Positions 14,103 to 29,459 of a stretch of 32,000 nt of DNA are shown piece by piece (within the stretch, counting starts at the first letter, position 1; each line of letters starts with the position of its first letter). The notes beneath the pieces were generated by a model. The model did no database searches and was not told the origin of the DNA. It worked only from the letters and a program-made list of their open reading frames with translations. Location: contig NZ_DS995298.1 of assembly GCF_000155895.1 (NCBI RefSeq), forward strand, positions 1,260,001 through 1,292,000. Direction: 5' to 3'. The DNA comes from Candidatus Pelagibacter sp. HTCC7211. Its GTDB lineage: Bacteria > Pseudomonadota > Alphaproteobacteria > Pelagibacterales > Pelagibacteraceae. Position numbers and translations under genes: made by a program.

Positions 14103-14119
14103 ATATTGATAATCTGTTA

Positions 14120-14767: not shown

Positions 14768-14769
14768 AG

Positions 14770-15897
14770 TTATTGTTTTTTTAAATAATTTAATCTTCCA
14801 ATGATTTCATCTCGATCCATATAATAACCTTGTAAATGTCTATGCCCTGAGTTTGGATCAAATTCTGTTCTTCCATGCAATACTCTTCTATTATTAAATG
14901 AATAAATGTCACCTGGTCCTAAACGAAATTTAATTTGAAACCTATCATCATGTAATAAGTTTCCAAATCTATGGTGAGCTTTATAAACTTTTTCCATTAG
15001 ATCAGGATGACAATCAAGCACATCCATTGTTGCTACACTAAATCTAATATCATGATAATCTCCATCTTTAGTCAAGCTGATTGCTGGTGCATGAAATGCC
15101 CTATGAGACACTTGTGTATAATCTGTATCTTTAAATTTTAATGGCACGTTAACTAATGTTTCAAAAATTTCTTTTTCATTATTCTTTAAATATTCAGCAA
15201 CTGCAAATCCATCTACAGCCGAAGAGTCGCCGCCTTTAGCTGAATTAATTAAGCAGTGAAGAAATTGATATCCTGGAGGCAGTTCAAACCAAGGCAAATC
15301 CATATGATTTCTTAGTGCATGTGCTGTGTATGCTGAATTATTTGGTTTTGGAATATTTATAACCTCAAAAGGTGTTTTAAAAAAAGTTTCTCTTATGTGG
15401 CTTATTCTATTAAGTAATGGAAAAGCAGATCTTTTTTCTACTGGTGCGTTCTTAACTATTGCAATACCCGTATGATGCAAAAGCTCTAACCATTTTATCA
15501 AGCCCTCGTCAGAGTCTAAAATTTCGTCATGCTCTATACAAATTGACTCGAATTTATTTCCAAGATTTTGATCCCATAAATTGTAAGGAGAAATATATTT
15601 TGATTTATTTTTTAATGTATAGCAATTTTGACGAAGCCAATTCAGATCATAGAAACTAGTATGATCTCCTTCACTCCATTGAACTTCAAGAGACCCTTTG
15701 TCATCTATTTTAAAATCTTTTACTGATAAATTTTCTGAAACATTTAAAATATTAAACATTCTGTGATGAGAATCTTTGTCATGAGCTGTAGGACAGTTAT
15801 CTCTAAGCCACATATAGTTAAATTTACTTTCTTCTCCATCACTCCATTTAATTTTTAAATCTGATGTATCTTTTTCAATTTTATCTATTTGAAACAT
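14770..15897 (-). CDS. Fe(II)/2-oxoglutarate dioxygenase, gamma-butyrobetaine dioxygenase (BBOX/TMLH family)
   Basis: 375 aa. N-terminal DUF971-type repeats (KIKWSDGEESKFNYMWLRDNCP; EVQWSEGDHTSFYDLNWLRQNC). TauD-fold core with HMD triad motif (RNHMDLPW) and distal NNRRVLHGR. Confidence 0.75.
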   Translation of the reverse strand: MFQIDKIEKDTSDLKIKWSDGEESKFNYMWLRDNCPTAHDKDSHHRMFNILNVSENLSVKDFKIDDKGSLEVQWSEGDHTSFYDLNWLRQNCYTLKNKSKYISPYNLWDQNLGNKFESICIEHDEILDSDEGLIKWLELLHHTGIAIVKNAPVEKRSAFPLLNRISHIRETFFKTPFEVINIPKPNNSAYTAHALRNHMDLPWFELPPGYQFLHCLINSAKGGDSSAVDGFAVAEYLKNNEKEIFETLVNVPLKFKDTDYTQVSHRAFHAPAISLTKDGDYHDIRFSVATMDVLDCHPDLMEKVYKAHHRFGNLLHDDRFQIKFRLGPGDIYSFNNRRVLHGRTEFDPNSGHRHLQGYYMDRDEIIGRLNYLKKQ

Positions 15898-16006
15898 TTA
15901 CTGATGATTATTTACTCATTAAAATTTGTCAATGCAATTAATAGTTGTAATTATCGATTTCTTTCCTTTAATCTATTTAGCAGTTTTGTTACAAGTTCAT
16001 TGAAAA

Positions 16007-17029
16007 ATGTCAAAAATAGAAATCAATAATATTTATAAAATCTTTGGTAATAAGCCACAATCAGTAATGCAAATGGTTAAAGACGGGGCGACCAAAGAGG
16101 AAGTTTTAGAAAAAACTGGTCACACTGTGGGACTAGATAACGTTTCGTTAAAGATTGAAGAAGGGGAAACTTTTGTTTGCATGGGATTATCTGGATCAGG
16201 AAAATCTACATTAATTAGACATCTTAACAGATTAATAGAACCCACATCTGGTGAAATATTAGTTGAAGGCACAAATGTAATGTCTTTGAATAAACAAGAA
16301 CTAATCGAATTTAGAAGACATAAAATGAGTATGGTTTTTCAAAGATTTGGTCTTTTTCCCCATAAAACAGTAATTCAAAATGTAGGCTATGGTTTAGAGA
16401 TGAGAAATATAACTCAAGAGGAAAGAAATAAAATAGCAATGGAAAAAATTGAGGCCGTTGGACTTAGTGGTTTTGAAAATCAATATCCAAATCAATTATC
16501 TGGAGGTATGCAACAAAGAGTTGGTCTTGCTAGAGCTTTAGCAACAGACTCGGATATCATGTTAATGGACGAAGCATTTAGTGCTTTAGATCCTTTAATA
16601 AGAAGTGATATGCAAAAACAATTAATTTCTCTTCAGTCAGAATTAAAAAAAACAATTGTCTTTATAACTCATGATTTAGATGAATCACTACGACTTGGAA
16701 ATCATATTGCAATTTTAAACGCAGGTAAATTAGTTCAAGTTGGAACTCCGGTTGATATTGTTATGAATCCAGCAGATGATTATGTTGCAGCATTTGTTAA
16801 AGATGTAAATAGAGCAAAAGTTTTAAAAGCAAAAGTAATTATGACTGATGCTAAAGAAGGACAACCCTCTGGAGAAAATAGATTAAAAGTTCATGAAGAT
16901 GAATTTTTAGAGGAATTTTTACCAAAAATTGTTCTTAATGATGTGGTTGTTGATGTCGTAGACTCAGCTGGACATATAAAAGGATATATAACAAATAAAG
17001 AATTACAATCTTCTTTAGTTAAATCTTAA
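16007..17029 (+). CDS. proV: Glycine betaine ABC transporter ATP-binding protein (ProV/OpuAA type), short C-terminal domain
   Basis: 340 aa. ProV-type N-terminus (IYKIFG...), Walker A GLSGSGKST, signature LSGGMQQRVGLARAL, Walker B IMLMDEAFSALDP. Only about 75 aa follow the ABC domain. Confidence 0.8.
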   Translation: MSKIEINNIYKIFGNKPQSVMQMVKDGATKEEVLEKTGHTVGLDNVSLKIEEGETFVCMGLSGSGKSTLIRHLNRLIEPTSGEILVEGTNVMSLNKQELIEFRRHKMSMVFQRFGLFPHKTVIQNVGYGLEMRNITQEERNKIAMEKIEAVGLSGFENQYPNQLSGGMQQRVGLARALATDSDIMLMDEAFSALDPLIRSDMQKQLISLQSELKKTIVFITHDLDESLRLGNHIAILNAGKLVQVGTPVDIVMNPADDYVAAFVKDVNRAKVLKAKVIMTDAKEGQPSGENRLKVHEDEFLEEFLPKIVLNDVVVDVVDSAGHIKGYITNKELQSSLVKS

Positions 17030-17089
17030 AATGAATTACCATCACTACTTGGTAGTTGTGATGAGAATGATTATATTTGCAAATAATTA

Positions 17090-18310
17090 ATGTTAGAAAT
17101 TAAAAATCTGACAGAGATTACAAGTAATGGGCTATGCATAGGTTGTGGACTTTGTCAAAGTGTTGTTGGAAAAGAAAAAATTCAAATTTCAATGACTGAT
17201 AAAGGAAGATTAGAACCAAGAGAAACAACATCTTTATCTAATGAAGACTTTAGAAAAATAAAAGAAATATGTCCCGGTGTATTAGTTGAGGGGTTACCTA
17301 AAAAAGAGATAAGTAAAAATTCAAAAGAGGATTTAATATGGGGAGTTTACAATTCTTTATACTACGCATGGTCATCTGATAAAGATATCAGATTTCAAAG
17401 TTCAACCGGAGGGCTTTTAAATGGAATTTCTTTATATCTGCTAGAAACTAATAAGGTAGATTTCATTTTACATACTGCGGGAGACCCCGACAAACCAATG
17501 AGAAGTATTCCAAAGTTCAGTTATTCAAAAAAAGATTTATTGAGTTGTGAGAGTAGATCAAGATATGGTCCCGCCTCACCTTTAAGTAAATTTAATGAAG
17601 CCCTAGATAAAAATAAAAATTTTGCTTTTATTGGAAAGCCTTGTGATATTTCTGCAATTAGACTTCTCTCTAAAACTGATAAAAGAGTAGATAAATATTG
17701 TAAATATTTATTAACTCTTGTCTGTGGTGGTTCTACAGAATTTACTAAATCTCAAGATTTTATAGAAAGCTACAATATTAAAGAAGAAGAGCTAGATATT
17801 TTTAGATACAGAGGATACGGCAATCCTGGTCTGATGTACGTCAGAACAAAGGATGGAAGAGAACATGATAAAGAATATAATTCTTTTTGGGGAGATGAAA
17901 GTAACTGGAGAGTTCATTTTAGATGTAAGATTTGTCCTGACGCAATAGGTGAAAGCGCTGATATAGCAGCCCTTGATACATGGAGGGGTGGATCTCCCAT
18001 AGGAGAGGATGAGGGATTTAATGCAGCAATTGTAAGAACTGAAAAAGGATTAGATATATTAAATAGTGCAATTAAAGATGGATATATTGAAAAAGGAAAT
18101 CATTTAAAAATTGATGATATAAATGACTTTCAGCCTCATCAGGTAAATAAAAAAAAATCTGTATACGCAAGACATTTAGGTCTTAAAAAAAATAATTTAC
18201 CTATTGTTGAAACTAGTGGATTAAGAATAAAAGAACTTTATGATAATAATGAAAGTGAATTTAATATTAAAGAGGAGAAAGGCATCACTTTAAGAATAAA
18301 TAAAATTTAA
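17090..18310 (+). CDS. FrhB/FdhB-family (coenzyme F420 hydrogenase/dehydrogenase beta-like) flavin/Fe-S protein
   Basis: 406 aa. N-terminal CIGCGLCQSV; GKPCDISAIRLL (FrhB_FdhB_N type); C-terminal FRCKICPDAIGESADIAALDTW (FrhB_FdhB_C type). Confidence 0.6.
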   Translation: MLEIKNLTEITSNGLCIGCGLCQSVVGKEKIQISMTDKGRLEPRETTSLSNEDFRKIKEICPGVLVEGLPKKEISKNSKEDLIWGVYNSLYYAWSSDKDIRFQSSTGGLLNGISLYLLETNKVDFILHTAGDPDKPMRSIPKFSYSKKDLLSCESRSRYGPASPLSKFNEALDKNKNFAFIGKPCDISAIRLLSKTDKRVDKYCKYLLTLVCGGSTEFTKSQDFIESYNIKEEELDIFRYRGYGNPGLMYVRTKDGREHDKEYNSFWGDESNWRVHFRCKICPDAIGESADIAALDTWRGGSPIGEDEGFNAAIVRTEKGLDILNSAIKDGYIEKGNHLKIDDINDFQPHQVNKKKSVYARHLGLKKNNLPIVETSGLRIKELYDNNESEFNIKEEKGITLRINKI

Positions 18311-19093
18311 ATGAATATTTTAAAAAATAAAAAAATAATTATTTCAGCTGGTGCATCTGGCATAGGTTTAGCTACTGCAAAAATTTGTCTTGCTAGAGGA
18401 GCATACGTCTATCTATGTGATATTAATACAAAATCTCTAACTAAATTGAATAAAAATTCTTTAAAAAATAAAAGATTATTTACTTACTATTGTGATGCCT
18501 CTGATGAAAAACAAGTTTCTGATTTTTTCCAAAAAATAAAAAAGAAAACAAAAAAAATTGATGCTTTAATTAATAATGTAGGAATAGCTGGTCCTACTGG
18601 ATCTCTTGAAAAATTAAAATCAAAAGATTGGGAAAATACATTACATGTAGATGTTAATAGTCATTTTTATTTTACAAAAAAATCAATTCCTTTACTTAAA
18701 AAATCTAAAAATGGTTCAATAATAAATATCTCATCAACTGCCGGGATACTTGGTTTTCCATTGCGTTCTCCTTATGCGGCAAGTAAATGGGCTATCATTG
18801 GTGTTACAAAAACATTAGCAATGGAACTCGGTAAATTTAATATTAGAGTTAATGCTGTATGTCCTGGCACAATTAAAGGTGATAGAATGAAAAGAGTAAT
18901 AAGAGATAAAGCAAAATTCACTAAAGTATCAACAAAAACTATTGAAAAAGATTTTATTTCAATGAGTTCAATGAAACAATGGATCCTTGAAGAAGATATT
19001 GGAAAAATGTGTTCTTTTTTAATTTCTGATGATTCAAGTAGAGTTTCTGGACAAGTGATATCTGTTGATGGCCATACTGAAAGGAATGATTAA
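18311..19093 (+). CDS. Short-chain dehydrogenase/reductase (SDR)
   Basis: 260 aa. Motifs ISAGASGIGLATAK, NNVGIAG, and the catalytic YAASKWAIIG (YxxxK). Its ATG directly abuts the stop of the FrhB-like gene. Confidence 0.85.
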   Translation: MNILKNKKIIISAGASGIGLATAKICLARGAYVYLCDINTKSLTKLNKNSLKNKRLFTYYCDASDEKQVSDFFQKIKKKTKKIDALINNVGIAGPTGSLEKLKSKDWENTLHVDVNSHFYFTKKSIPLLKKSKNGSIINISSTAGILGFPLRSPYAASKWAIIGVTKTLAMELGKFNIRVNAVCPGTIKGDRMKRVIRDKAKFTKVSTKTIEKDFISMSSMKQWILEEDIGKMCSFLISDDSSRVSGQVISVDGHTERND

Positions 19094-19094
19094 G

Positions 19095-20036
19095 TTATCT
19101 TAATTTTTTTTCGTACTTTTTTCTAAGTTTTTGAAGTTCAACAAGATATTCGTCTCTTATATTTGCAATTTTTGTAACTGATTTTCCTTTAGATTGTTTT
19201 TTAGTGCCTGCCACTAATCTATTTATTAATTTATTTGACAAATTTGGAGCTTTTAACTTTGTCCAAGGTAATTTTAAGGCTGGACCAAATTGTTCTAACA
19301 TATGTCTCATGCCAGCTTTTCCTCCTGCTAAATGAAAAGTTAGGAAAGTTCCCATTAATGACCATCTCAATCCTGGCCCATCTTCAATTGCTCTATCTAA
19401 ATCTTCAGTGGTTGCATGTCCTTCATTGATTATATGTAGTCCTTCTCTCCACAAAGCCTCTTGTAATCTATCTGATAAATAACCAGGCAATTCATGCTTA
19501 ACCATTATTGGATTCATTGAAATCGATTTATAAAATTTTTTAGCATTATCTAAATATTCATTTGAAGTTTTTTTACTAGGCACAATTTCAACTGCAGGTA
19601 ATAAATAAACTGGGTTAAATGGATGTCCAATAATTGTTCGTTGAGGATTTTTACATTTGGAATAAATTTTAGTAGGTAATAATCCCGATGAGCTAGATGA
19701 AATTATCGCTTTAGGTTTTGCATGCTTGCCTATAGTTGCCATTAATCTAGTTTTTAAGGCATAATTTTCGCTAGCACATTCTTGAATAAAATCCGCATCT
19801 TTCACAGCTTCTTCAAGAGAAGTAAAATATTTAAAATTTTTTAATTTAAGTGTTTTTTTATTAAAAAGCTTTTTAACATAAGGCCATGTTCTCTTAATTT
19901 CAGATACTAAGTTTTTTTTAAGTTTTAAATCTTTGTCAAAAGCGTAAACAATTTTATCGTGTGCCAAGCAACGAATTATCCATCCGGCACCAATTACACC
20001 AGTTCCTATAATGGCTATTTTTTTTATTTTATTCAT
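19095..20036 (-). CDS. lcdH: L-carnitine 3-dehydrogenase (3-hydroxyacyl-CoA DH / lambda-crystallin family)
   Basis: 313 aa. IAIIGTGVIGAGW, ADFIQECASE, IGHPFNPVYLLP, and the long block GPGLRWSLMGTFLTFHLAGGKAGMRHMLEQFGPALKLPWT. That block matches carnitine dehydrogenases as I recall them. Confidence 0.7.
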   Translation of the reverse strand: MNKIKKIAIIGTGVIGAGWIIRCLAHDKIVYAFDKDLKLKKNLVSEIKRTWPYVKKLFNKKTLKLKNFKYFTSLEEAVKDADFIQECASENYALKTRLMATIGKHAKPKAIISSSSSGLLPTKIYSKCKNPQRTIIGHPFNPVYLLPAVEIVPSKKTSNEYLDNAKKFYKSISMNPIMVKHELPGYLSDRLQEALWREGLHIINEGHATTEDLDRAIEDGPGLRWSLMGTFLTFHLAGGKAGMRHMLEQFGPALKLPWTKLKAPNLSNKLINRLVAGTKKQSKGKSVTKIANIRDEYLVELQKLRKKYEKKLR

Positions 20037-20038
20037 TT

Positions 20039-21049
20039 TTAATTTAATAACTCTTTAATATTCTTATCTAGTTCTTTTTCAAATTTTCTATCATTACCAG
20101 GATTTGCAGCACAATGGCCGAAGGATGAATTAATTGGTCTTAATGATGAACGTGGAATATATCTTTTTTCATATTCATTATCTTTGGTTCTAAAGTATAG
20201 ATCTTGATTGCATGGCATTAAAATTGTTTTTGCTTTTATAGATTTAAGTGCCTTAATATAATTATTCTTATAAGTTGGTCCTCTACTTATATCATTCAAT
20301 TGCCAAGTTTTTAATTTTGATAGTAAATTATTAGCATCCCAATTTTTTGCATGATCTTCTGCCCAATCATTTAATAATTCTTCTGAATTTTTATATCCAA
20401 GTTTCTTGAATAGTTTTTCTCTATAAAAATTTTGAGAAAAAGCCCATCCTGCGTAAACACGACCAAAAGCTCTTAGACCTACAACAGGTTGTCTTTTATA
20501 ATTACCTTTATTCCAATTCTTGTCAGCTGTAAGTGCAGCTTTTACTCCCTCTAAAAAAACATGATTATGAATTGATGTTTTAGATGATGCACAAAATGGA
20601 AGAATTGCTTTTACCATATTTGGAAACTGTGCAGCCCATTGATATGATTGACATCCAGCCATTGACCAGCCAGTTACTAATGCTATTTTTTTTATTTTTA
20701 GTTTTTCAGTAATGAGTTTATGTTGGCAATAAATATTGTCCCATAAAGTTAATGTTGGAAATTTTGAACCAGATTGATTTTTGATTGTATTACTTGGAGA
20801 CGATGAAAAGCCATTACCAAACATATTAATTGATACAATGAAATATTTATTAGGATTAATTGCTCTATTCTTTCCAATAAATCCCTCATTTCTAATATGG
20901 CTTCCTGTATAAAAAGTTGGAAGAATAATTACATTTGAGGCACTTTTATTTAATTTGCCGTAGGTTTTGTATGCTAATTCCGCTGAACTTAAAATTTTAC
21001 CAGATAAAAGTTTAATATTTCCTAATTTAAACTTTTCATAATTCTTCAT
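20039..21049 (-). CDS. Alpha/beta-hydrolase, MetX (homoserine O-acetyltransferase)-like acyltransferase/esterase
   Basis: 336 aa. AYKTYGKLN...NVIILPTFYTGSH, FIVSINMFGNGFSSSPSN, and nucleophile elbow GWSMAG. Confidence 0.6.
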   Translation of the reverse strand: MKNYEKFKLGNIKLLSGKILSSAELAYKTYGKLNKSASNVIILPTFYTGSHIRNEGFIGKNRAINPNKYFIVSINMFGNGFSSSPSNTIKNQSGSKFPTLTLWDNIYCQHKLITEKLKIKKIALVTGWSMAGCQSYQWAAQFPNMVKAILPFCASSKTSIHNHVFLEGVKAALTADKNWNKGNYKRQPVVGLRAFGRVYAGWAFSQNFYREKLFKKLGYKNSEELLNDWAEDHAKNWDANNLLSKLKTWQLNDISRGPTYKNNYIKALKSIKAKTILMPCNQDLYFRTKDNEYEKRYIPRSSLRPINSSFGHCAANPGNDRKFEKELDKNIKELLN

Positions 21050-21052
21050 GAA

Positions 21053-22474
21053 TTAATAAAGTCTGAGATATTCTTTCACTTCCCAATCAGTAACTGCTTG
21101 ATGGTATCTTTCCCATTCATCATTCTTATAAGCTAATAAAGAATTTTTCATAACCGTTCCTATAACTTCATCAGACAATCTATCATTCTTTAGAGCTTCT
21201 AAAGCCATAAGTAAATTTCTTGGCAACCTTTTAATCCCAAGTTTTTTAAACTCTTTATCGGTCATTTCATAAAGATCTTGATCTGTAGGTTTGCCTGGAT
21301 GAATTTTCATCTTAATTCCCTCTACTGCAGCTGCAAGTGTCATTGAAAAAGCTAAATATACATTCATGGTCATATCTGCAGCTCTATTTTCTATACAATA
21401 TCTATTTTGAGGTAATCTAAATTGAGCAGATCTATTGTTGTGTCCATAAGTAATATTTGTTGGCGCCCAAGTAACTGTGCCTCCTTCAAATCCTCCCACT
21501 CTAGGAACTAATCCATTATACGAATTTACTGTTGAGCATGTAATTGAAGTTAATGCCTCAGCATGTTTCATTAATCCACCTACAGCAAATAATGATTCTT
21601 TTGACCATTTGTTACCTGCATCAAAAATATTTTTTCCATTTTTACCGACCATGGAGAAATTTATATGCGCTCCTGATCTCCAGTCTCCAATAGTAGGTTT
21701 TGGCATAAATGTAATAAACATATTATGTTTTTTAGCGACCTCTTTGAGAAGGATACGAAGAAAAACTAATCTATCAGCCATCTCCAAAAGATTTGTATAA
21801 TGAAAATCTAATTCAAATTGTGAGTAAGCACCTTCAGCAACCACATCATGAAGCTGCCATCCTAAACCGTTAAGAATATCAATTAATTCTTTTAAAAAAT
21901 GCATTGAGTCTAATGAGTGCTCAACGTCATAACCAAAAGCTTGTCTTCTAGGCCTAACTCCCTTTATTGGATCAGTATCAATAGCTTTTATTGGCTGACC
22001 ATTTTCATCATATTTCATTGCAATAAACTCAGGTTCGACCCCTGCCATACCTCTATATCCAGCATCTTGAGCTTTTTGCATATTACGTTTTAAAGCTTGT
22101 CTTGGACAAACATTGTAAGGTTTATCTTCCCAAAATAGATCTGCAAAAATTATTGCTGTTGATGTGTCCCAAGGACAAATATAAACAGCGTCTAAATCTG
22201 GTAGCATAACTTGATCCGAGTCTGCTGGAGTTAGTTCTGGAACATAAGAGATTGAATGAACTGCAAACTGAGGTCCCTTTCCTAAACACAAAGGTTCAAA
22301 ATCAGACATTGGAACAGGTTTTGTTTTTGGAATACCATGGAGATCAATCCAACTTGATAAAACGTATTTTACACCAGCGTTTTTTAATTTTTTATAAACT
22401 GAAGGTATTTTTTTTCTATTACGCTCAACTGCATCTTTAAAATTAACGTAATAAATTTTTTCATTTTTACTCAT
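21053..22474 (-). CDS. Glutamine synthetase-family ligase (gamma-glutamyl-amine synthetase-like, GmaS/PuuA-like)
   Basis: 473 aa. Beta-grasp N-domain (VKYVLSSWIDLHGIPKTKPV), GVEPEFIAM, FMPKP...SGAHINFS, YGHNNRSAQFRLP, and ENRAADMTMNVYL. Confidence 0.7.
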   Translation of the reverse strand: MSKNEKIYYVNFKDAVERNRKKIPSVYKKLKNAGVKYVLSSWIDLHGIPKTKPVPMSDFEPLCLGKGPQFAVHSISYVPELTPADSDQVMLPDLDAVYICPWDTSTAIIFADLFWEDKPYNVCPRQALKRNMQKAQDAGYRGMAGVEPEFIAMKYDENGQPIKAIDTDPIKGVRPRRQAFGYDVEHSLDSMHFLKELIDILNGLGWQLHDVVAEGAYSQFELDFHYTNLLEMADRLVFLRILLKEVAKKHNMFITFMPKPTIGDWRSGAHINFSMVGKNGKNIFDAGNKWSKESLFAVGGLMKHAEALTSITCSTVNSYNGLVPRVGGFEGGTVTWAPTNITYGHNNRSAQFRLPQNRYCIENRAADMTMNVYLAFSMTLAAAVEGIKMKIHPGKPTDQDLYEMTDKEFKKLGIKRLPRNLLMALEALKNDRLSDEVIGTVMKNSLLAYKNDEWERYHQAVTDWEVKEYLRLY

Positions 22475-22494
22475 GTTGATCTCTTCAATTTTTA

Positions 22495-22890
22495 TTATTG
22501 TGGCATATCTTCAGGATCTATTCCAGGAACAAATGTTATGCCTGCTTTTTGTTTCCAATCATGAGGGTACGCTGCATAAAATATTACACATTTTTCATCA
22601 CATTCATAAGCTATATGGTTATCCTTAGGTATATAAAGAACATCACCAGGATTACAGATATAAGACTCTCCATCACATGTTAGTCTAAAAGTTCCTTCCA
22701 TACAGTAAATAATTTCATCACAAGTTAAATCCCATGGCACAGAAACTTTATTTAAGAAATTTAATCCACCACACATCGTGTTACTTACTTTGCTGGTAAC
22801 AAAGGGTTTAATATAACTCTTGCCTGGTTCTAAAGTATGAAGTCTATTTTCTATATCTTTAAACTTATATAGTTGTGGCTTCTTTGACAT
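22495..22890 (-). CDS. Cupin-fold protein, EutQ-like (lacks the HxH metal motif)
   Basis: 131 aa. PWDLTCDEIIYCMEGTFRLTCDGESYICNPGDVLYIPKDNHI...FYAAYP resembles the EutQ pattern (DEidYVleG...aGDvifIPkGs...YvtyP). No His at the cupin motif-1 positions. Confidence 0.5.
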   Translation of the reverse strand: MSKKPQLYKFKDIENRLHTLEPGKSYIKPFVTSKVSNTMCGGLNFLNKVSVPWDLTCDEIIYCMEGTFRLTCDGESYICNPGDVLYIPKDNHIAYECDEKCVIFYAAYPHDWKQKAGITFVPGIDPEDMPQ

Positions 22891-22907
22891 TCTTATTTCC
22901 TTTCAGT

Positions 22908-23327
22908 TTAGACTTTTATTGGTTCATTTAATTCAACTTTATATCCATCAGGATCCTCACAAAATGCTATTACTCTTGTTCCATGTTTCATTGGACCTGG
23001 TTTACGAGTAATATTCACACCAAGTTTTTCAAGATCTTCACAAGCTTTATAAACATCTGGAGTTTCAATACAAACATGCCCCCATCCGTTTCCTTTGTCA
23101 TAATCTTCTTTTTGATCCCAATTGTGTGTTAATTCTAAACAAGGAGACTCTGTTTCAAGTCCATAGCCGATAAATGCATTTGTAAATTTTCCCTCAGGAT
23201 AATCTGTTTTTCTTAAAACTTTCATACCTAATGTTTTGCAATAAAAATTAAAAGATGCTTCTAGATCTTTAACTCTTATCATTGTATGGGCTAGTCGATA
23301 TCCCTCTAGATTGATTTCTTTAGACAT
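22908..23327 (-). CDS. gloA: Lactoylglutathione lyase (glyoxalase I)
   Basis: 139 aa. HTMIRVKDLEASFNFYCKTLGMKVLRKTDYPEGKFTNAFIGYG...LELTHNW...GWGHVCIE...FCEDPDGYKVELNE. Colinear with bacterial GloA. Confidence 0.85.
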   Translation of the reverse strand: MSKEINLEGYRLAHTMIRVKDLEASFNFYCKTLGMKVLRKTDYPEGKFTNAFIGYGLETESPCLELTHNWDQKEDYDKGNGWGHVCIETPDVYKACEDLEKLGVNITRKPGPMKHGTRVIAFCEDPDGYKVELNEPIKV

Positions 23328-24456
23328 TTTTTTTCCTTTTTATTGATTTTGAAGATTTCATTGTAGCATCAACTATGAGCTTTTGAAATGCTTGAACACC
23401 TTTTTCCCACACAGGAGACAAAAGACCACCTTCGTAAGATGCTGGAGAGTGCCTTCCTTCTTGAAGTCTTTCACACATTTCATGATCTTCTTTATGAACA
23501 CTCCACCATATGTTTTTAACCATTTTAATTTCTTCTTTACTCATGTCTTTACCGTCTGTTGTGTAAATTATTCTTTTTTGAGATGTTAAACCTGGGCTTA
23601 TTGGCACGTTAAGATAAACTCCGATTTGATTAGGAAAATAAGTTCCAATTATAAAATTTGGAAAAAGAGACAAATATCTAGATGTTACAGATAAAGCAGT
23701 ACTATTTTTAGTGTCTTCTTCATAAACGTCTACTCCACTGCCATAACATACTCCGTCTACAACAGTGTAATGATCTTTTAAAGGCTGATTGGTAGTAGTC
23801 TTATGAACAAACTGTACATGATAAGGCTCTATAAAGTTTTCAATTAAAAATTTCCAATTAGTATTTATATTTCCAAAATTTAACGTAGCTGCATATCTCA
23901 ATTTAGTAAAATCAATATCATTGAATTTTGAAATAAGTGGTTTTGCATATTGTTCAAATTTTTTTGCTTTTCCATTAAAATTTATAAAAATCCAATCGTG
24001 CCAAATATGAATCTTTATTGGTTTCAAACCATGATCAAAAAAATTAAATCCTTTTGGCTTGTGTTGATCTGTACCACCAACATGAGGTGCTGCTTTTAAG
24101 TTACCATCAAGATCATAGCTCCATGCATGATAAGGACAACGTATCATTTTTCCTACATTTTTTTTTTCATCTATAAGCTTTAGGCATCTGTGACTGCAAA
24201 CGTTATGGAAAGCTTTTATTTCGTTATTGTTATTTCGTACAAGTAATATTGGTTTATTTGCAATAAATAATGGAATTACATCACCAGTATTTTTAAGTTC
24301 ATGAGCAAAACCTACAAATAACCAATCATTAGATAAAACTGTTTCACATTCTTTTTTCCAAAAATTTTCATCAATATAAGATTTAGCTGGTAGGCCAAAT
24401 ATAGTATTGGCATTTTTTGATTTCTTTATTTTTACTAAATTTTTTTCTTTAGACAT
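23320..24456 (-). CDS. Rieske [2Fe-2S] non-haem-iron oxygenase alpha subunit, CntA/YeaW/GbcA/choline-monooxygenase-like
   Basis: 378 aa. Rieske CSH-x17-CPYH (CSHRCLKL...IRCPYHAWSY). Catalytic-domain motif NWKFLIENFIEPYHVQFVH. Size and layout resemble CntA/YeaW (about 371-374 aa). The stop overlaps the gloA start by 8 nt. Confidence 0.7.
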   Translation of the reverse strand: MSKEKNLVKIKKSKNANTIFGLPAKSYIDENFWKKECETVLSNDWLFVGFAHELKNTGDVIPLFIANKPILLVRNNNNEIKAFHNVCSHRCLKLIDEKKNVGKMIRCPYHAWSYDLDGNLKAAPHVGGTDQHKPKGFNFFDHGLKPIKIHIWHDWIFINFNGKAKKFEQYAKPLISKFNDIDFTKLRYAATLNFGNINTNWKFLIENFIEPYHVQFVHKTTTNQPLKDHYTVVDGVCYGSGVDVYEEDTKNSTALSVTSRYLSLFPNFIIGTYFPNQIGVYLNVPISPGLTSQKRIIYTTDGKDMSKEEIKMVKNIWWSVHKEDHEMCERLQEGRHSPASYEGGLLSPVWEKGVQAFQKLIVDATMKSSKSIKRKKNV

Positions 24457-24542
24457 GGGCTAGTAGAAAATTATTAATTATATTGAAAACCCTATTTTAG
24501 AATATTAAGATTTACAATAAAATATTTGAATAGTGCAATTAG

Positions 24543-25898
24543 ATGGGAAATAACAAATTTATAGAAGAAGATTTTAGAGGCTATAAACAGTCTACAGTAC
24601 CAAAAATAGATGAGGTTTTAGCAAGAACAAATCCAAAGACAGCTTGTGGAGAATATTTAAGACGCTATTGGCATCCTGTTGCTTTAACTTCTGAGGTAAG
24701 TCATATCCCAAGAGAAATTCGTATTTTAGGAGAGGATTTAGTAATATTTAAAACTTCTAAAGGGAATATAGGTTTGGTCCATAAAGCATGTCCTCACAGA
24801 AGAGCTTCTATGGCCTATGGTAAAACTGAAGAAGAAGGAATTAGGTGTTGTTATCATGGATGGCTTTTTTCTCCTAACGGTGAAATACTTGAAACACCTG
24901 GTGAAGACCCAGAGTCAAAACAAGCTAAAAAACTAAGAGAAACTTTTAAACTTGGAGCTTACCCTGTAATAGAATTTAACGGTTTAGTATTTTCTTATCT
25001 TGGACCAATGGATAAAATTCCAGAATTTCCACATTACGACTCATTTGAAATACCAGGAAATACTTCGAGTCCATATCGTATAGATTATAACTGTAATTGG
25101 ATCCAAGTCTTAGATGCAATCATGGATCCTCTTCATACATCATTTTTACACGGTCAAAGTTCTGGTCTTCAATTCTCTGAAGGTTTTGCTGAAGTTGGAG
25201 AAATAGAATTTTATGAAAGAGGAATTCAATATCTAGGATGTAATACGCGAAGAATAAATGACAATGTTTGGGTAAGAGTAAATGAATTAATTTTACCTAA
25301 TTTTACTCAGGCTGGAGCTGCATTTGCAGCTGATGGTACAAAAAGTAAATACTTTGGAAGAAGTTCTTTTACAAGGTGGGTTGTGCCTATTGATGATCAT
25401 CATTGTGTTGCTTTAGCTTGGGCAAATTTTGGTGAAAGAGGAGATCCGATAGAATACAATAATCAAGAAGGATACGAAAGAATTGAAGCTGGTGAAATTT
25501 CAAATAGAACTAAAGAAGAAAAACAAAAAAGTCCTGGTGATGCAGAAGCTGTTGAGGGGATGGGTTCAATAAGTGGTCATAAAGGAGAACATCTAATGCC
25601 AACTGATAAAGGTGTTATGATATATAGAAGAAGAACAAGAAAATTAATTAAAGATTTAGAGCAAGGATTAGAACCACCTCAACCTCAAAAGACAAAAGGA
25701 GAAGTCGTGAGAACTAATGGACAAGATACGGTATTAAAAGCCCCAAAAAGAAGTAATAATGATAAAGAGTACGTCAAATCAATATGTTCTTCAGTGATGA
25801 ATATGCAATTTGATTTAGAAGAAATGCCGTTAAAAGAAAGAGACAATAGTATTATTAAAAATCTTCAACAAATGGAGGCGAGGGGTAATTTTGACTGA
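24543..25898 (+). CDS. Rieske [2Fe-2S] oxygenase, VanA/KshA/PaO (class IA demethylase/monooxygenase)-like, with a long charged C-terminal extension
   Basis: 451 aa. RRYWHPVA, a Rieske CPH...CCYH motif (CPHRRASMAYG...IRCCYHGWLF), and NWIQVLDAIMDPLHTSFLH. Confidence 0.7.
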   Translation: MGNNKFIEEDFRGYKQSTVPKIDEVLARTNPKTACGEYLRRYWHPVALTSEVSHIPREIRILGEDLVIFKTSKGNIGLVHKACPHRRASMAYGKTEEEGIRCCYHGWLFSPNGEILETPGEDPESKQAKKLRETFKLGAYPVIEFNGLVFSYLGPMDKIPEFPHYDSFEIPGNTSSPYRIDYNCNWIQVLDAIMDPLHTSFLHGQSSGLQFSEGFAEVGEIEFYERGIQYLGCNTRRINDNVWVRVNELILPNFTQAGAAFAADGTKSKYFGRSSFTRWVVPIDDHHCVALAWANFGERGDPIEYNNQEGYERIEAGEISNRTKEEKQKSPGDAEAVEGMGSISGHKGEHLMPTDKGVMIYRRRTRKLIKDLEQGLEPPQPQKTKGEVVRTNGQDTVLKAPKRSNNDKEYVKSICSSVMNMQFDLEEMPLKERDNSIIKNLQQMEARGNFD

Positions 25899-26919
25899 AA
25901 ATAAAAAGATAAAAATTCATGTTAAGAATAATCATTGGGCACCAGGCTCCTTCCCTACTGATGCCGAAGGTGAAAAAAATTTTACTATTACAAAAGAGCA
26001 CTTAGAAAATGCGCTTAAAGATCTTCCAGAAATAAAAAACAAAGTAGAAATATTTGTTGATTGGGATGAAGATAATTTTGAAAAATCAATGTCTAATTCT
26101 GATATTTTATTAGCTTGGAACTTTCCTACACAAAATCTAAAAAAAATTTCACCTAATTTGAGATGGATACATGTTGTTTCTGCGGGTGTTGAGCATTTGC
26201 TTCCTTTGGACTGGATGTTTGATGATTTAGTATTAACTAATAGCAGTGGTGTCCATGCCAAAAAAGCTGGTGAATACGGGTTAATGGCTATTTTGATGTT
26301 GCAAAATCATATGACCAAAATTGTTACCAATCAAAAAAATAAAGAGTTTGTCTCTTTATTTAGCAATCCTATTGCAGGCAAAACAGTGGTTGTTGTTGGA
26401 ACAGGATCTCTAGGATCTTCAATGGCAAAACACATCAAATCATTAGGAGCAAATGTGATTGGTGTAAATAAAAAAGGGAAAAAAGTAGAAGGATGTAATG
26501 AGGTTATTACTATCGAAAGTATTGATACTGTTTTACCAAATGCAGATTTTTTGTACCTAGCTGTACCTGAAACTCCAGATACAAAAAATATGATTAATAA
26601 AGATAGACTTGATATGCTTAAACCAACATGTGGAATAGTTAATGTTGGAAGACAGTCAGTAATGGATTATGAAGTAATGGCTGATAAACTTAATAATAAT
26701 GAATTAGCTGGCGCAATACTTGATGTTTTTACCCACGAGCCTTTAGATAAGTCTTCAAGACTTTGGGATACGCCAAATCTAATTTTAACACCTCATGTAT
26801 CGTCTGACGATCATGGTGACTATGTAAGATTAACTCTGAATATATTTATAAAAAATTTAAAATTATTTTTTGAAGATAAAGAGTTAATGAATCAGATTGA
26901 TAAAAAGCTTGGATATTAA
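25891..26919 (+). CDS. D-isomer-specific 2-hydroxyacid dehydrogenase family protein
   Basis: 342 aa. VVVVGTGSLGSSMAKHIKSLGANVIGV, NVGRQSVMD, ILDVFTHEPL, and LTPHVSS. TTG start at 25891 preceded by GGAGGCGAGGGG. It overlaps the Rieske stop (TTGACTGA). Confidence 0.7.
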   Translation: MTENKKIKIHVKNNHWAPGSFPTDAEGEKNFTITKEHLENALKDLPEIKNKVEIFVDWDEDNFEKSMSNSDILLAWNFPTQNLKKISPNLRWIHVVSAGVEHLLPLDWMFDDLVLTNSSGVHAKKAGEYGLMAILMLQNHMTKIVTNQKNKEFVSLFSNPIAGKTVVVVGTGSLGSSMAKHIKSLGANVIGVNKKGKKVEGCNEVITIESIDTVLPNADFLYLAVPETPDTKNMINKDRLDMLKPTCGIVNVGRQSVMDYEVMADKLNNNELAGAILDVFTHEPLDKSSRLWDTPNLILTPHVSSDDHGDYVRLTLNIFIKNLKLFFEDKELMNQIDKKLGY

Positions 26920-26957: not shown

Positions 26958-27845
26958 TTACTTGTGTTTAATAAGTTTAAGTTTTTCTCTTGTTTCAGCT
27001 GGCGTCATTGGTGAATAGCCTATTTCATCTGCAATTCTTATTGCTTTTTCAACCAACTGCGCATTTGTAGCTAATTTTCCTTTTGATAAATATAAATTAT
27101 CTTCTAAGCCAACTCTTGGATTTCCACCCATCAAAATAGTTTGAGCAACAAAAGGCATTTCATTTTTTGAAATTGCAAAACCAGACCAAACACCCTCTTT
27201 TGGCATTATATCCTTCATTGCTTGCATTGCTAATGTTGTTGCTGGTGCACCCCAAGGTATTCCTAAACACATCTGAAACATTGGTGGGTCACTTAATAAG
27301 CCCTCTTTGTACAATTGGGCACCAAACCACATATTGCCTAAATCAAATGCTTCAATTTCAGGTTTTACCCCTATGTCTTTTAATTTTTTGGCAGCTTTTC
27401 TCAAATCATTTGGCGTATTAACTGTTATAACCGAACTATCGCCGAAGTTTAGTGTTCCAGCATCGAGTGTACAAATTTCAGGTAAAAACTGTTCAGCATT
27501 TGCAATTCTTTCCATAACATTTGCCATATCAGTCATTGGGCCAAAATCTAAAGGGTTATCACCTTGCCCGATATCAAGGTCACCTCCCATACCTGTAGTT
27601 AAATTTAAGATTACATCAGTGCCACTAGATCTTACTCTATCTACTACTTCTTTATATAGCTCTAACCTCCTACTAGGAGTACCATCTTCTTCCCTAACAT
27701 GAATATGAGCAATTGCAGCACCTGCTTTAGCAGCTTCGATAGAAGCTGTTGCTATTTGTTCAGGAGTTTTTGGCAAATCAGGGTGTTTGCTAGCAGTGTC
27801 TCCAGAACCAGTTACCGCGCAAGATACAAAAACTTTATTGTTCAT
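26958..27845 (-). CDS. BKACE (3-keto-5-aminohexanoate cleavage enzyme, DUF849) family; candidate dehydrocarnitine cleavage enzyme
   Basis: 295 aa. VFVSCAVTGSGDTASKHPDLPKTPEQIATASIEAAKAGAAIAHIHVRE is the hallmark BKACE N-terminus. LGIPWG and RVGLEDNLY are also present. Confidence 0.75.
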   Translation of the reverse strand: MNNKVFVSCAVTGSGDTASKHPDLPKTPEQIATASIEAAKAGAAIAHIHVREEDGTPSRRLELYKEVVDRVRSSGTDVILNLTTGMGGDLDIGQGDNPLDFGPMTDMANVMERIANAEQFLPEICTLDAGTLNFGDSSVITVNTPNDLRKAAKKLKDIGVKPEIEAFDLGNMWFGAQLYKEGLLSDPPMFQMCLGIPWGAPATTLAMQAMKDIMPKEGVWSGFAISKNEMPFVAQTILMGGNPRVGLEDNLYLSKGKLATNAQLVEKAIRIADEIGYSPMTPAETREKLKLIKHK

Positions 27846-27880
27846 AATTTATAATTCACTTATAGTTTAAAAAAGTAAAA

Positions 27881-28606
27881 ATGGAAATAACTGAATTACA
27901 AAAAGATTTAGCTGCAACATTTAGATGGGCTGCAAGATTAAATATGCATGAAGCAGTTGCAAATCACTTTAGTGCTTGCGTTCCAGGTTCCTCAGATTTT
28001 TATGTAAATAAAGCCGGCATTCATTTTAGCCGAATAAAAGCAAGTGATTTAATTTTAATAACAAAAGAAAATATTAATGAATTTAGAAATAAACCCGAAA
28101 TAGTAGACTCTACGGCATTAAATATACATGGAACAATTCATGAAAAAGCTCCACATGCTAAATGTATTTTTCATGTTCATTCAAAATATGCAACTATCCT
28201 ATCAACACTAAAGGACCCAACGTTAAAACCTATAGATCAAAATACTATGACTTTTTATAACAAGATTGCTGTCTATAATGATTTTGGAGGATTGGGATTT
28301 CAAGAAGAGTCAATCAAAATGGCAAATGCTTTAGGCAATAAGCAACATATGATTTTAGCTAATCACGGAATTATAACAACTGGAGAGACAGTTGCTGAAG
28401 GTTTCAATTCATTATATTATTTTGAAAAAGCTTCCGAAACTTACATTACAGCTCTATCAACTAATAAAGATTTAAACATTGTAAGTCATGAAATTGCTGA
28501 AAAAACTTCAGAGGAGGCTGCAAATTATCCTGTTGATACAGCAAAACAATTTTTATCAGAGATTAGATGTATCTTAGATAAAGAAGAACCTGATTATGTA
28601 AATTAA
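27881..28606 (+). CDS. Class II aldolase/adducin-domain protein
   Basis: 241 aa. GNHFSA-type start (ANHFSACVPG), HGTIHEKAPHAKCIFHVHSKY (metal-binding His cluster), and ILANHGIITTGETV. Confidence 0.65.
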   Translation: MEITELQKDLAATFRWAARLNMHEAVANHFSACVPGSSDFYVNKAGIHFSRIKASDLILITKENINEFRNKPEIVDSTALNIHGTIHEKAPHAKCIFHVHSKYATILSTLKDPTLKPIDQNTMTFYNKIAVYNDFGGLGFQEESIKMANALGNKQHMILANHGIITTGETVAEGFNSLYYFEKASETYITALSTNKDLNIVSHEIAEKTSEEAANYPVDTAKQFLSEIRCILDKEEPDYVN

Positions 28607-28607
28607 T

Positions 28608-29078
28608 ATGAGTATATTTCTTACTAAACAAAAAATAATAAAAGATTGGACAGACTATAATGGACATATGAATGTTGCATATTATGTTCTCATATTTGAT
28701 CAATTTGGATCAGAAGTCTTATTAACTAGTTTTAATATGGGCGAACATTCTGCAAAAACTACAAAAAAAAGCACTATGGTTGTAGAATCTCATATTACCT
28801 ATGATCAAGAGGTTAAAGAAAATGACGAAGTAGATATTAACTTAATTTATTGTGACCATGATAAAAAAAGAATTCAATATAAGTTAGAAATGATACATTC
28901 AGAAAAAAAATACTTATCCGCAACTCTAGAAGCTTTATCGCTTTATGTTGATCTAGATGAAAGAAAAGTTGTTGAATTTGAAAAAGAAAAAGTGGATCTA
29001 ATGAGAGAATTCATTTCTAAAAATAATAGTACTTTTAAAACTGATAATTTAAAATTTTCTTCTAAATTAAAAAAATAA
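28608..29078 (+). CDS. Hotdog-fold (4HBT-like) acyl-CoA thioesterase; candidate betainyl-CoA thioesterase
   Basis: 156 aa. DYNGHMNVAYYVLIFDQ is typical of 4HBT_2-type thioesterases. Its start lies 1 nt after the aldolase-like stop. Confidence 0.6.
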   Translation: MSIFLTKQKIIKDWTDYNGHMNVAYYVLIFDQFGSEVLLTSFNMGEHSAKTTKKSTMVVESHITYDQEVKENDEVDINLIYCDHDKKRIQYKLEMIHSEKKYLSATLEALSLYVDLDERKVVEFEKEKVDLMREFISKNNSTFKTDNLKFSSKLKK

Positions 29079-29082
29079 ATAC

Positions 29083-29415: not shown

Positions 29416-29430
29416 CCTATCTTATACATT

Positions 29431-29459
29431 TTGACAAATGAAAATTCTAGCGATAAGTT
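29431..29459 (+). promoter_or_regulatory. Candidate promoter directly abutting the TauD-like start codon
   Basis: TTGACA (29431-29436), a 17-nt spacer, then TAAGTT (29454-29459). The ATG at 29467 is only 7 nt downstream and there is no SD. Confidence 0.3.

Follow-up and report, generated by a model that had tools for sequence, protein, structure and literature searches.

This analysis concerns a 32,000-nucleotide stretch of the genome of Candidatus Pelagibacter sp. HTCC7211 (contig NZ_DS995298.1, positions 1,260,001 to 1,292,000), referred to below as the window, and in particular an array of six consecutive open reading frames (ORFs) on its minus strand. In order of transcription the array contains the following genes:

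23320-24456, minus strand: RIE1, a Rieske oxygenase, first gene of the RIE1-GloA-cupin trio
22908-23327, minus strand: GloA (glyoxalase I), above the TIGR00068 cutoff
22495-22890, minus strand: EutQ-like cupin (PF06249), third gene of the trio
21053-22474, minus strand: ligase of the glutamine synthetase (GS) family, with a Gln-synt_C domain
20039-21049, minus strand: MetX-like alpha/beta hydrolase of the PRK07581 subfamily (NF005757; MekB/CgHle esterase type)
19095-20036, minus strand: CDH, a 3HCDH-family protein and probable L-carnitine dehydrogenase, below the NF005471 cutoff

The products of these six ORFs, and of both genes of the divergent neighboring pair, exactly match proteins annotated in Ca. 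Pelagibacter sp. HTCC7211. A preliminary description, made from the DNA letters alone, had reported the six ORFs with spacers of -8, 17, 20, 3 and 2 nt, and the ORF coordinates confirm this exactly. Direct inspection of the sequence gives ATGTCTAA as the overlap of the RIE1 end and the gloA start, and TAA-AA-ATG as the hydrolase/CDH junction. Co-transcription is plausible in HTCC7211, given the tight spacing and the absence of minus-strand terminator-like sites within the array in a terminator scan; promoter-like matches in the array were at chance level in a promoter scan. Gaps of 1-2 nt are nevertheless found in this window even between convergent genes (19093/19095, 14767/14770 and 3651/3654), so that spacing alone is weak evidence for a common function, and close packing was rejected as functional evidence. 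Conservation, not spacing, is the real test of the unity of the array.

Protein families were called from Pfam domains, with curated NCBIfam/TIGRFAM cutoffs then serving as the test of membership. The array products belong to the superfamilies Rieske plus Ring_hydroxyl_A, Glyoxalase, EutQ/cupin, Gln-synt_C, Abhydrolase_1 (MetX-like) and 3HCDH, and at this level the earlier domain calls hold. Only two array products pass curated cutoffs: GloA (TIGR00068) and the hydrolase, the latter as a member of PRK07581. The view that the gene set has no characterized counterpart stands as well: no published description of these gene units was found in a non-exhaustive search of the literature, and the papers on aminoacetone/methylglyoxal, PB7211 tags and polyamine metabolism found in that search do not describe the module.

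Conservation and mosaic structure of the array

Ligase loci were collected as the best 80 matches with one genome per species (66 SAR11 and 14 non-SAR11 loci), a set biased toward relatives of HTCC7211, and ORFs in these relatives were labeled by BLAST against the window proteins. Contexts of the trio were drawn from a cupin search, with five gammaproteobacterial contexts examined, and a metagenome scan used CDH as the query. L-numbers such as L001 and L174 are the locus labels of this analysis.

The five genes from RIE1 to the hydrolase are colinear in 55 of 66 SAR11 loci and in 6 of 14 non-SAR11 loci, the latter carriers being Hoeflea, Ruegeria, a Hyphomicrobiales metagenome-assembled genome (MAG) and uncultured Alphaproteobacteria. 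CDH, by contrast, lies directly after the hydrolase in 15-16 of the 53 SAR11 loci in which the downstream region is visible and in none of 11 non-SAR11 loci. The six genes are therefore not conserved together in relatives. The preliminary description had proposed a single six-gene pathway and had named the conservation of gene order across relatives beforehand as a check on it; that check fails for all six genes.

The other five genes also occur apart. The trio is conserved in Alpha- and Gammaproteobacteria, and in the five gammaproteobacterial contexts (L174, L175, L176, L177 and L179, with two gene orders) it is found without the ligase and hydrolase. In reciprocal fashion, the ligase/hydrolase pair is found without the trio at L002, L074, L079, L084, L085 and L091, usually accompanied by an AsnC regulator when alone; a Denitrobaculum MAG has the pair with an AsnC/Lrp regulator and nothing else. 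The hydrolase is next to the ligase in 60 of 66 SAR11 and 13 of 14 non-SAR11 loci. A NitT/TauT-type ABC transporter lies between the two in Methyloceanibacter and on a Leisingera plasmid (L085, L090), and Alisedimentitalea has one next to the pair; for the inserted transporter of L085, the substrate-binding protein has no informative solved or curated relative.

A fourth separable unit is transcribed divergently from RIE1:

24457-24542: intergenic region of 86 nt between the divergent RIE1 and RIE2 genes, presumed promoter region
24543-25898, plus strand: RIE2, a phthalate 4,5-dioxygenase-related Rieske oxygenase with a Rieske domain and a weak LigXa_C match
25891-26919, plus strand: 2HADH, a D-isomer-specific 2-hydroxyacid dehydrogenase (PF02826, 154 bits; NF041369, 186 against a cutoff of 400)

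The RIE2 and 2HADH genes overlap by 8 nt, and 2HADH lies beside RIE2 wherever RIE2 is seen in uncut loci. RIE2 matches PDB entries 7fhr (E 1e-45) and 7fjl, and the closest entries for 2HADH are 3hg7 and 8hpg. RIE2 accompanies the module in 41 of 66 SAR11 loci, the ligase pair alone at L072, L074 and L079, and the trio alone at L176. The ligase/hydrolase and RIE2/2HADH pairs are found together in three genomes, and in one MAG the trio is followed by an AsnC gene, a RIE2-type Rieske oxygenase gene and a 2-hydroxyacid dehydrogenase gene. The four units thus occur in every pairwise combination, which argues for a related metabolism but for separable steps.

The separable architecture and the family signatures are direct observations. 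For the explanation as a whole, a lineage-specific mosaic of separable units and not a six-step pathway, in which RIE1 would act by cleavage of a C-N bond, the chances are about even.

The oxygenase, glyoxalase and cupin trio

RIE1 is an alpha-only Rieske monooxygenase of 378 aa with the Pfam domains Rieske and Ring_hydroxyl_A; its JGI annotation name is choline monooxygenase. The best NCBIfam match is GbcA (NF058607), at 147.6 bits against a cutoff of 670, and is confined to the N-terminal half (model positions 25-224 of 420). The closest PDB sequences are NagG, 3n0q, Stc2 and CntA (E 1e-23 to 1e-28), with salicylate 5-hydroxylase as the top match. The alignment with CntA covers only residues 16-230 (E 3e-23, about 30% identity); similarity to CntA is thus not full-length, and the window is without a reductase gene. 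An AlphaFold2 (AF2) model of RIE1, built from a shallow alignment, has a pLDDT of 42.

Active-site signatures are more revealing. In the clade Va oxygenases (CntA, choline monooxygenase and OxyBAC), an aromatic residue at the position of CntA Tyr203 makes a pi-cation contact beside the bridging Glu205, whereas the clade Vb demethylases GbcA/BmoA and Stc2 have Asn at this position (Quareshy et al., PMC7948474). The Y203F variant of CntA keeps its activity, and cleavage by CntA and OxyBAC is at the C-N bond beside the onium group (PMC7948474). Clade Va oxygenases hydroxylate carbon and not N-methyl groups. In RIE1 the motif EN-F-I-E-PYHVQFVH places Phe at the Y203 position and Glu at the E205 position, together with two His. 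The Y203 position is Phe in 61 and Tyr in 4 of 65 RIE1 orthologues, and the CSHRC...CPYH and E-P-Y-H-x4-H motifs are invariant across 13 aligned orthologues. RIE1 therefore has the clade Va aromatic residue, the Rieske CxH...CxxH motif, the bridging Glu and the 2-His iron motif, and it has neither the score nor the clade Vb Asn of a GbcA. This combination argues against a plain betaine demethylase and for C-hydroxylation or C-N cleavage of a quaternary amine. The substrate of RIE1 is probably cationic, most likely a quaternary ammonium compound bound by a pi-cation contact.

RIE1 thus resembles CntA/CntB and clade Va in being alpha-only and in having the bridging Glu, the two-His motif and the aromatic residue, and the gene for a dedicated reductase (FAD/NAD plus 2Fe-2S) adjoins a RIE1-type gene in two genomes. 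Unlike CntA, it is shorter and always partnered with GloA and an EutQ-like cupin, and its predicted product is a 2-oxoaldehyde and not the malic semialdehyde of CntA.

GloA scores 155.5 against a TIGR00068 cutoff of 120, shares 45-50% identity with E. coli GloA and retains the four metal ligands (H5, E56, H74 and E122). The preliminary description had read the RIE1/gloA overlap as a sign of a 2-oxoaldehyde product, and comparison with relatives strengthens this idea: the 8-nt overlap is kept in 48 of 55 SAR11 loci, GloA accompanies RIE1 in every context seen, and GloB is added in Aliamphritea. A 2-oxoaldehyde product is thus a good inference, and the RIE1-GloA system seems built to receive one. 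Compared with the glyoxalase system GloA/GloB, the array GloA is orthologous by curated score and metal ligands, and a true GloB is part of the Aliamphritea unit; unlike a housekeeping glyoxalase, the array gloA is embedded in an oxygenase operon and translationally coupled to the oxygenase gene, which implies deliberate making of the GloA substrate and not housekeeping detoxification. No GloB gene was found near the alphaproteobacterial versions of the module in the loci examined. The array hydrolase was considered as a substitute for GloB and rejected, since it tracks the ligase and not GloA, and since a true GloB joins the trio in Aliamphritea.

The cupin carries PF06249 (64.8 against 21) and falls short of the EutQ acetate kinase equivalog NF012001 (55 against 193). 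Its AF2 model (pLDDT 93) has EutQ structures 2pyt and 4axo as best Foldseek matches (TM about 0.66). The domain and fold are thus EutQ-like but the equivalog score and eut context are not, there being no eut genes in any locus examined, and the canonical motif-1 histidines are missing. Cupin identity across Alpha- and Gammaproteobacteria ranges from 59 to 98%; the cupins of HTCC7211 and Hoeflea sp. TYP-13 share 92%, against only 57-58% for the neighboring Rieske protein. The family comprises two sequence types. Conservation of Cys57, Cys63 and Cys101 is 90% or more, and Asp58 and Glu59 never vary.

The fullest form of the trio is found in Aliamphritea hakodatensis (L174), where a divergent BCCT transporter gene is followed by genes for the Rieske oxygenase, GloA, the cupin, an FAD/NAD plus 2Fe-2S reductase of the ferredoxin-NAD type (9540-10499 of L174), GloB (TIGR03413, 320 against 201) and a GbdR-like regulator, with a choline dehydrogenase gene 3 kb beyond this unit. 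A second genome also has the reductase gene after that for the cupin. In SAR11, the module is set among genes for choline dehydrogenase, CDH, BKACE, a betaine ABC transporter and gamma-butyrobetaine-type dioxygenases; other neighbors of the module include DMGDH-like, GcvT-like and MTTB genes.

A proposed C-N bond cleavage

From gene context and family signatures we infer a reaction in which RIE1, GloA and the cupin would act as a Rieske monooxygenase system, with its own reductase and GloB elsewhere. RIE1 would hydroxylate the carbon between an onium group and an adjacent carbonyl, and the resulting hemiaminal would collapse to trimethylamine (TMA) and a 2-oxoaldehyde, which GloA would convert at once to a D-2-hydroxyacyl-glutathione. 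Formation of a 2-oxoaldehyde by C-N cleavage requires a carbonyl beside the N-CH2 group, and three candidate substrates of the form (CH3)3N+-CH2-C(=O)-R fit this requirement. Betaine aldehyde, from choline dehydrogenase, would yield glyoxal; 3-dehydrocarnitine, from CDH, would yield 3,4-dioxobutanoate; and trimethylaminoacetone, formed by decarboxylation of 3-dehydrocarnitine, would yield methylglyoxal. Choline dehydrogenase and CDH, which would produce the candidates, are the neighbors encoded in SAR11 and Aliamphritea. The preliminary description had likewise proposed a CntA-style cleavage to TMA and a 2-oxoaldehyde; this chemical core gains support, while the obligatory link to carnitine is lost, since dehydrocarnitine and trimethylaminoacetone are now among several candidates and betaine aldehyde is equally consistent with the contexts.

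A more specific version of this proposal, put forward tentatively, is that RIE1-type enzymes form a new quaternary-amine Rieske clade that cleaves alpha-(trimethylammonio)carbonyls to TMA and a 2-oxoaldehyde, which would be formed deliberately and channeled by a glyoxalase of its own to glycolate, D-lactate or D-malate. The same tentative version would make the cupin an obligatory third component and place the re-engineered GS-like ligase in the same regulon.

Several observations weigh against the proposed cleavage and the mosaic in which it is placed. The scores of RIE1 fall far below all curated family cutoffs, the scheme assigns no step to the cupin despite its high conservation, and GloA could be protective and not on the pathway. 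The tertiary amine that would be released cannot be a substrate of the ligase, and the ligase/hydrolase and RIE2/2HADH pairs co-localize with the trio more often than unrelated genes should, even though the scheme needs neither. A BCCT transporter is present in one of the five gammaproteobacterial contexts, the others having LysR regulators and uninformative neighbors; no reductase gene was found near the module in the SAR11 or other Alphaproteobacteria examined; and most module-bearing SAR11 loci have neither CDH nor choline dehydrogenase within 10 kb. The bias of the locus set toward HTCC7211 relatives counts in the same direction.

The ligase and hydrolase pair

The ligase matches Gln-synt_C (PF00120) at 292 bits and is below all equivalog cutoffs, scoring 354 against 470 for the type III GS/GmaS model (TIGR03105) and 303 against 429 for the GlnA model (TIGR00653). 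The domain and the metal and ATP ligands, which are kept throughout (E129, E131, E212, E220, H269, E357, R339, R344 and R359 by comparison with E. coli GlnA), place it in the GS superfamily. The glutamate site is altered: relative to E. coli GlnA/PuuA and a true GmaS, Asp50 is Ala, Asn264-Gly265 is Trp-Arg and Arg321 is Gly. Residues N264, G265 and R321 are canonical in E. coli PuuA and in a true GmaS encoded at one of the loci, and the equivalents of positions 265 and 321 in GmaS, Gly231 and Arg288, bind a glutamate analogue (PMC7948447). The motifs DWRSG[AG]H and NSYNG are present in 82 of 82 ligase orthologues, in all of which the substitutions in the glutamate site are invariant. SAR11 ligases share 76-79% identity with those of other alphaproteobacterial orders (Rhizobiales, Rhodobacterales and others), which points to strong constraint. 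The retained metal and ATP residues together with the loss of Asp50 indicate that the ligase is active and does not employ ammonia as GS does, and the altered glutamate-holding residues suggest that its acid substrate is probably not glutamate bound canonically. More speculatively, the loss of a carboxylate-binding Arg and the gain of a Trp would suit a betaine shaped like gamma-aminobutyric acid, such as gamma-butyrobetaine or carnitine. An ordinary glutamine synthetase was rejected on the loss of D50 and R321 and the failed curated scores.

The hydrolase belongs to the uncharacterized PRK07581 subfamily (NF005757, 430 against 332) and is not a MetX (TIGR01392, 154 against 500). Its closest solved chains, 5d6o (E 5e-63) and 5e4y (E 2e-57), were both deposited as homoserine O-acetyltransferase and are the esterases CgHle and MekB. 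The similarity to MekB/CgHle is full-length, with the GxSxG serine and the Asp and His motifs readable; on the other hand, the array hydrolase is at most about one third identical to these enzymes, and its partners are a GS-like ligase and an AsnC regulator and not a Baeyer-Villiger monooxygenase. The ligase and hydrolase are predicted to form an ATP-dependent conjugation/hydrolysis pair.

Such a pair invites comparison with gamma-glutamylation pathways, and the principal alternative to the proposed TMA-forming cleavage, although unlikely, is a catabolism of this type for a small primary amine such as aminoacetone, 1-aminopropan-2-ol or ethanolamine. The ligase would conjugate the amine, the Rieske oxygenases and dehydrogenase would oxidize the conjugate, and C-N cleavage would release glutamine together with methylglyoxal or glyoxal for GloA, the alpha/beta hydrolase replacing a GATase-type gamma-glutamyl hydrolase. 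Ligase, oxygenase and hydrolase are combined in the same way in the aniline, 1-naphthylamine, isopropylamine and putrescine pathways (PMC11335346; partly established knowledge). The array ligase also resembles PuuA of PuuA/PuuD, GmaS and the aniline/1-naphthylamine systems in having intact ATP and metal sites, no Asp50, a hydrolase partner and oxygenases nearby. The Ala at position 50 is that of PuuA, so that ammonia would not be the nucleophile, the ligase and hydrolase are always paired, the cupin is EutQ-like, and a GDPD gene and an APH/choline-kinase-like gene are present in some contexts.

However, unlike PuuA and GmaS, the ligase has exchanged Gly for Arg, Arg for Gly and Asn for Trp at the residues that hold glutamate, having lost the Arg and gained Trp-Arg where the alpha-amino-acid group of glutamate would be bound. 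The oxygenase trio, unlike those of gamma-glutamylation pathways, does not need the ligase/hydrolase pair, as it works without the ligase in the five gammaproteobacterial contexts, and the clade Va signature of RIE1 points to quaternary amines. The hydrolase, moreover, is a MetX/MekB-type serine enzyme and not of the GATase type, and no GATase-type gamma-glutamyl hydrolase was found in the module at any locus examined.

Two further observations concern the amine settings of the pair. Genes of the arginase/agmatinase family recur in three independent contexts (L080-L082, L090 and L091), beside either the module or the ligase pair, and at L080 a true GmaS (TIGR03105, 627 bits) and an Amt transporter are also near. 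A polyamine pathway, suggested by the adjacency of potABCD, was rejected because that arrangement is convergent and found in only some SAR11, and because the PuuA model is a weaker match.

The probable carnitine dehydrogenase and the quaternary-amine island

CDH scores 361.8 bits against the NF005471 cutoff of 414 and thus falls just short of it; its expected partners, BKACE and a CdhB-like thioesterase, are both in the window. These genes belong to an island of quaternary-amine genes on either side of the array:

10176-19093: left part of the island, with DMT/EamA, HIBADH-like, OpuAC, ProW, GDPD, gamma-butyrobetaine/TmpA-like dioxygenase, ProV, FrhB-like and SDR genes
26958-27845, minus strand: BKACE (PF05853, 306 bits)
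28608-29078, plus strand: 4HBT-type thioesterase, CdhB-like (PF13279), matching the C-terminal thioesterase domain of PRK07531, a fused carnitine 3-dehydrogenase model
30346-31929, plus strand: choline dehydrogenase-type GMC oxidoreductase (PRK02106, 743 against 605), a possible source of betaine aldehyde

To the right of the array, RIE2 and 2HADH are followed by BKACE, a class II aldolase, the CdhB-like thioesterase, an SMR protein, a TauD-family dioxygenase and the choline dehydrogenase. A choline dehydrogenase homologue abuts 2HADH at L035, L036, L047, L050, L057 and L067.

The metagenome contigs, whose CDH is 75-97% identical to that of HTCC7211, place CDH most commonly in a contiguous BKACE-CDH arrangement. 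The same-strand upstream neighbor of CDH is BKACE in 41 metagenome loci (33 of them with a gap of -1 nt), and the hydrolase takes this place in 18 of the 68 informative contigs. BKACE and CDH also stand in this order in the cdhCAB operon of P. aeruginosa (gene identities partly established knowledge). At L100 and L008 the order is BKACE-RIE1-GloA-cupin-ligase-hydrolase-CDH, which indicates that the block sits within the BKACE-CDH operon. Insertion of the block between these two genes would have left CDH as the final gene of the array. With BKACE and the thioesterase, CDH forms part of the known route from carnitine to glycine betaine; it is fused to the array only in genomes of the HTCC7211/HTCC8051 type and is a lineage-specific passenger. 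In such genomes CDH, the maker of 3-dehydrocarnitine, would be co-expressed with the oxygenase, which could be adaptive if 3-dehydrocarnitine is the substrate.

In a genomic island described from Arctic SAR11, CDH and BKACE are consecutive entries in the gene table (PMC12421898). The gene list and order of the HTCC7211 window match this island, split by a 7-gene block between BKACE and CDH. Table S5 of the same study counts HTCC7211 as one of 18 genomes in which the island arrangement was not evident (PMC12421898); HTCC7211 holds homologues of nearly all of the island genes (10176-19093 and 26958-31929), in the same order. As points of likeness to P. aeruginosa caiX-cdhCAB-hocS and the published island, the window holds genes for CDH, BKACE, the thioesterase, a betaine-type ABC transporter, choline dehydrogenase and gamma-butyrobetaine-type dioxygenases. 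Unlike the published island, that of HTCC7211 is split, with CDH read from a foreign block, and the published gene list is without the Rieske, GloA, cupin, ligase and hydrolase genes.

These arrangements bear directly on the six-gene carnitine pathway of the preliminary description, which now appears improbable. In that scheme CDH produces dehydrocarnitine, which gives trimethylaminoacetone; RIE1 cleaves this to TMA and methylglyoxal, GloA detoxifies the latter, the ligase serves as a trap for a derived primary amine, and carnitine is released from its esters by the hydrolase. The probable co-transcription of CDH in HTCC7211 (2-nt spacer, no terminator), the precise placing of the insertion within the BKACE-CDH operon, which recurs in 18 of 68 informative contigs, the clade Va signature of RIE1 with its GloA coupling, and the acylcarnitine hydrolase HocS of the P. 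aeruginosa carnitine operon are all in keeping with it. However, about 70% of SAR11 loci and every non-SAR11 locus lack CDH beside the module; each of the three units (trio, pair and CDH) is also found apart from the others; and BKACE and the thioesterase in the window already give dehydrocarnitine its canonical fate. No primary amine arises in the scheme, and nothing was found in support of a trapping role for the ligase, whose glutamate-binding residues are altered. Nor was anything found in support of the hydrolase as an acylcarnitine or thioester hydrolase; it tracks the ligase and not CDH.

Other readings of the oxygenase

Because the best NCBIfam match of RIE1 is GbcA, a betaine N-demethylase of the GbcA/Stc2 type that releases formaldehyde was also considered, with GloA, the cupin and the other genes as bystanders or as general protection against aldehyde stress. 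RIE1, Stc2 and 3n0q have a C-terminal EDxE...SPxxE motif in common, the genomic settings are betaine-catabolic, with DMGDH-like, GcvT-like and betaine transporter neighbors, and HTCC7211 has a glutathione-dependent formaldehyde pathway (PMC3160333). Such a function is doubtful, however. The GbcA match (148 against 670) does not extend beyond the N-terminal half, all 65 orthologues have Phe or Tyr where clade Vb has Asn, and the conserved partners GloA and GloB have no role in demethylation, being unable to process formaldehyde (established enzymology). The preliminary description had listed plain betaine demethylation as an objection to its scheme, and the clade Va aromatic residue in all 65 orthologues argues against that objection.

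It is very unlikely that RIE1 instead cleaves a thioether or sulfonium substrate X-CH2-C(=O)-R, with X a methylthio or dimethylsulfonio group, such as 3-methylthiopyruvate or an oxidized derivative of dimethylsulfoniopropionate (DMSP), releasing methanethiol or dimethyl sulfide and a 2-oxoaldehyde. Genes resembling SBP56/methanethiol oxidase lie by the module in Hoeflea and the Hyphomicrobiales MAG, genes of the enoyl-CoA hydratase (ECH) family are adjacent at L177 and L001, a DmdA gene is present in the window, BCCT transporters also carry DMSP (established knowledge), and the AsnC and EamA neighbors suggest amino-acid-like effectors. These associations are nonetheless few and mostly not immediately adjacent, and the choline/betaine-type context is stronger. 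We know of no characterized Rieske oxygenase of the RIE1 clade that acts on sulfur compounds.

Least credible is an aniline-type cluster for an aromatic amine or acid, with ligase, ring-hydroxylating oxygenases, ring cleavage by a VOC protein, cupin dioxygenase and meta-cleavage-product hydrolase: despite the salicylate 5-hydroxylase match of RIE1, the resemblance of RIE2 to phthalate 4,5-dioxygenase and a domain set superficially like that of meta-cleavage clusters, the VOC protein is a genuine GloA, the cupin is EutQ-like and without metal-binding histidines, the hydrolase is of the MetX/MekB type and not a meta-cleavage-product hydrolase, there are no beta subunits or lower-pathway genes, and the contexts are those of osmolyte and amine catabolism.

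Implications for trimethylamine formation

TMA and TMA oxide (TMAO) are major nitrogen compounds of the surface ocean and climate-relevant, and SAR11 is known for the oxidation of TMA and TMAO and for a need for glycine and pyruvate precursors. To our knowledge, the enzymes that form TMA are choline TMA-lyase, CntA, betaine reductase and TMAO reductase, of which only CntA needs oxygen, the rest being anaerobic or respiratory. If the proposed RIE1 reaction is true, a Rieske route from choline and carnitine oxidation intermediates to TMA would be an added oxic source term in the commonest bacterial clade of the sea. Such an oxygen-dependent route from choline or carnitine would be present in SAR11 and in other abundant marine Alpha- and Gammaproteobacteria, and would link to the TMA/TMAO oxidation and the glycine and pyruvate requirement of SAR11. 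An operon that deliberately feeds a glyoxalase would be an unusual metabolic design, and the swapped arginine of the GS-like ligase makes this protein a well-defined subject for enzymology. The array also illustrates how, in streamlined genomes, unrelated modules can come to be packed like an operon.

Further observations on the window and module neighborhoods

The presumed promoter region at 24457-24542 gave no Rfam match (riboswitch or other RNA element), and promoter-like matches in it were only at the consensus level.

Downstream of CDH in the direction of the array, an FrhB/FdhB-like iron-sulfur flavoprotein gene and an SDR gene (17090-19093) are separated by a 0-nt spacer and are absent from the published list of 17 island genes. 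In some metagenome contigs (L143 and L153) they come after CDH in the same orientation, and at L040, L042 and L044 they abut the hydrolase; their products could be an electron-transfer partner. In several SAR11 genomes (L010 and L014-L020) a 132-aa ORF, Cys-rich and by eye like a GFA (glutathione-dependent formaldehyde-activating) domain protein, comes after CDH, about 940 nt past the hydrolase. In many SAR11 (L035-L067), three genes are found in place of CDH about 134 nt after the hydrolase; by eye they encode a luciferase-like monooxygenase (389 aa), a thiamine pyrophosphate enzyme (565 aa) and a 195-aa protein.

On the left side of the window, a DoeA-like (ectoine hydrolase family, below cutoff)/EutA-like pair (8208-10120) lies beside potABCD (3654-8168). 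In SAR11 genomes without the island this potABCD/DoeA-like region directly abuts the hydrolase in convergent orientation, which indicates that the window lies in a variable region bounded by potABCD. A 129-aa ORF at 10124-10513 on the minus strand has no Pfam match, overlaps the EamA gene in antisense and is probably not a gene.

SBP56 (selenium-binding/methanethiol oxidase) genes by the module are located at 14166-15521 of L001 (Hoeflea) and 3312-4676 of L083 (Hyphomicrobiales MAG), and that of Hoeflea sits with genes for a TPMT methyltransferase, a ferredoxin and an enoyl-CoA hydratase.

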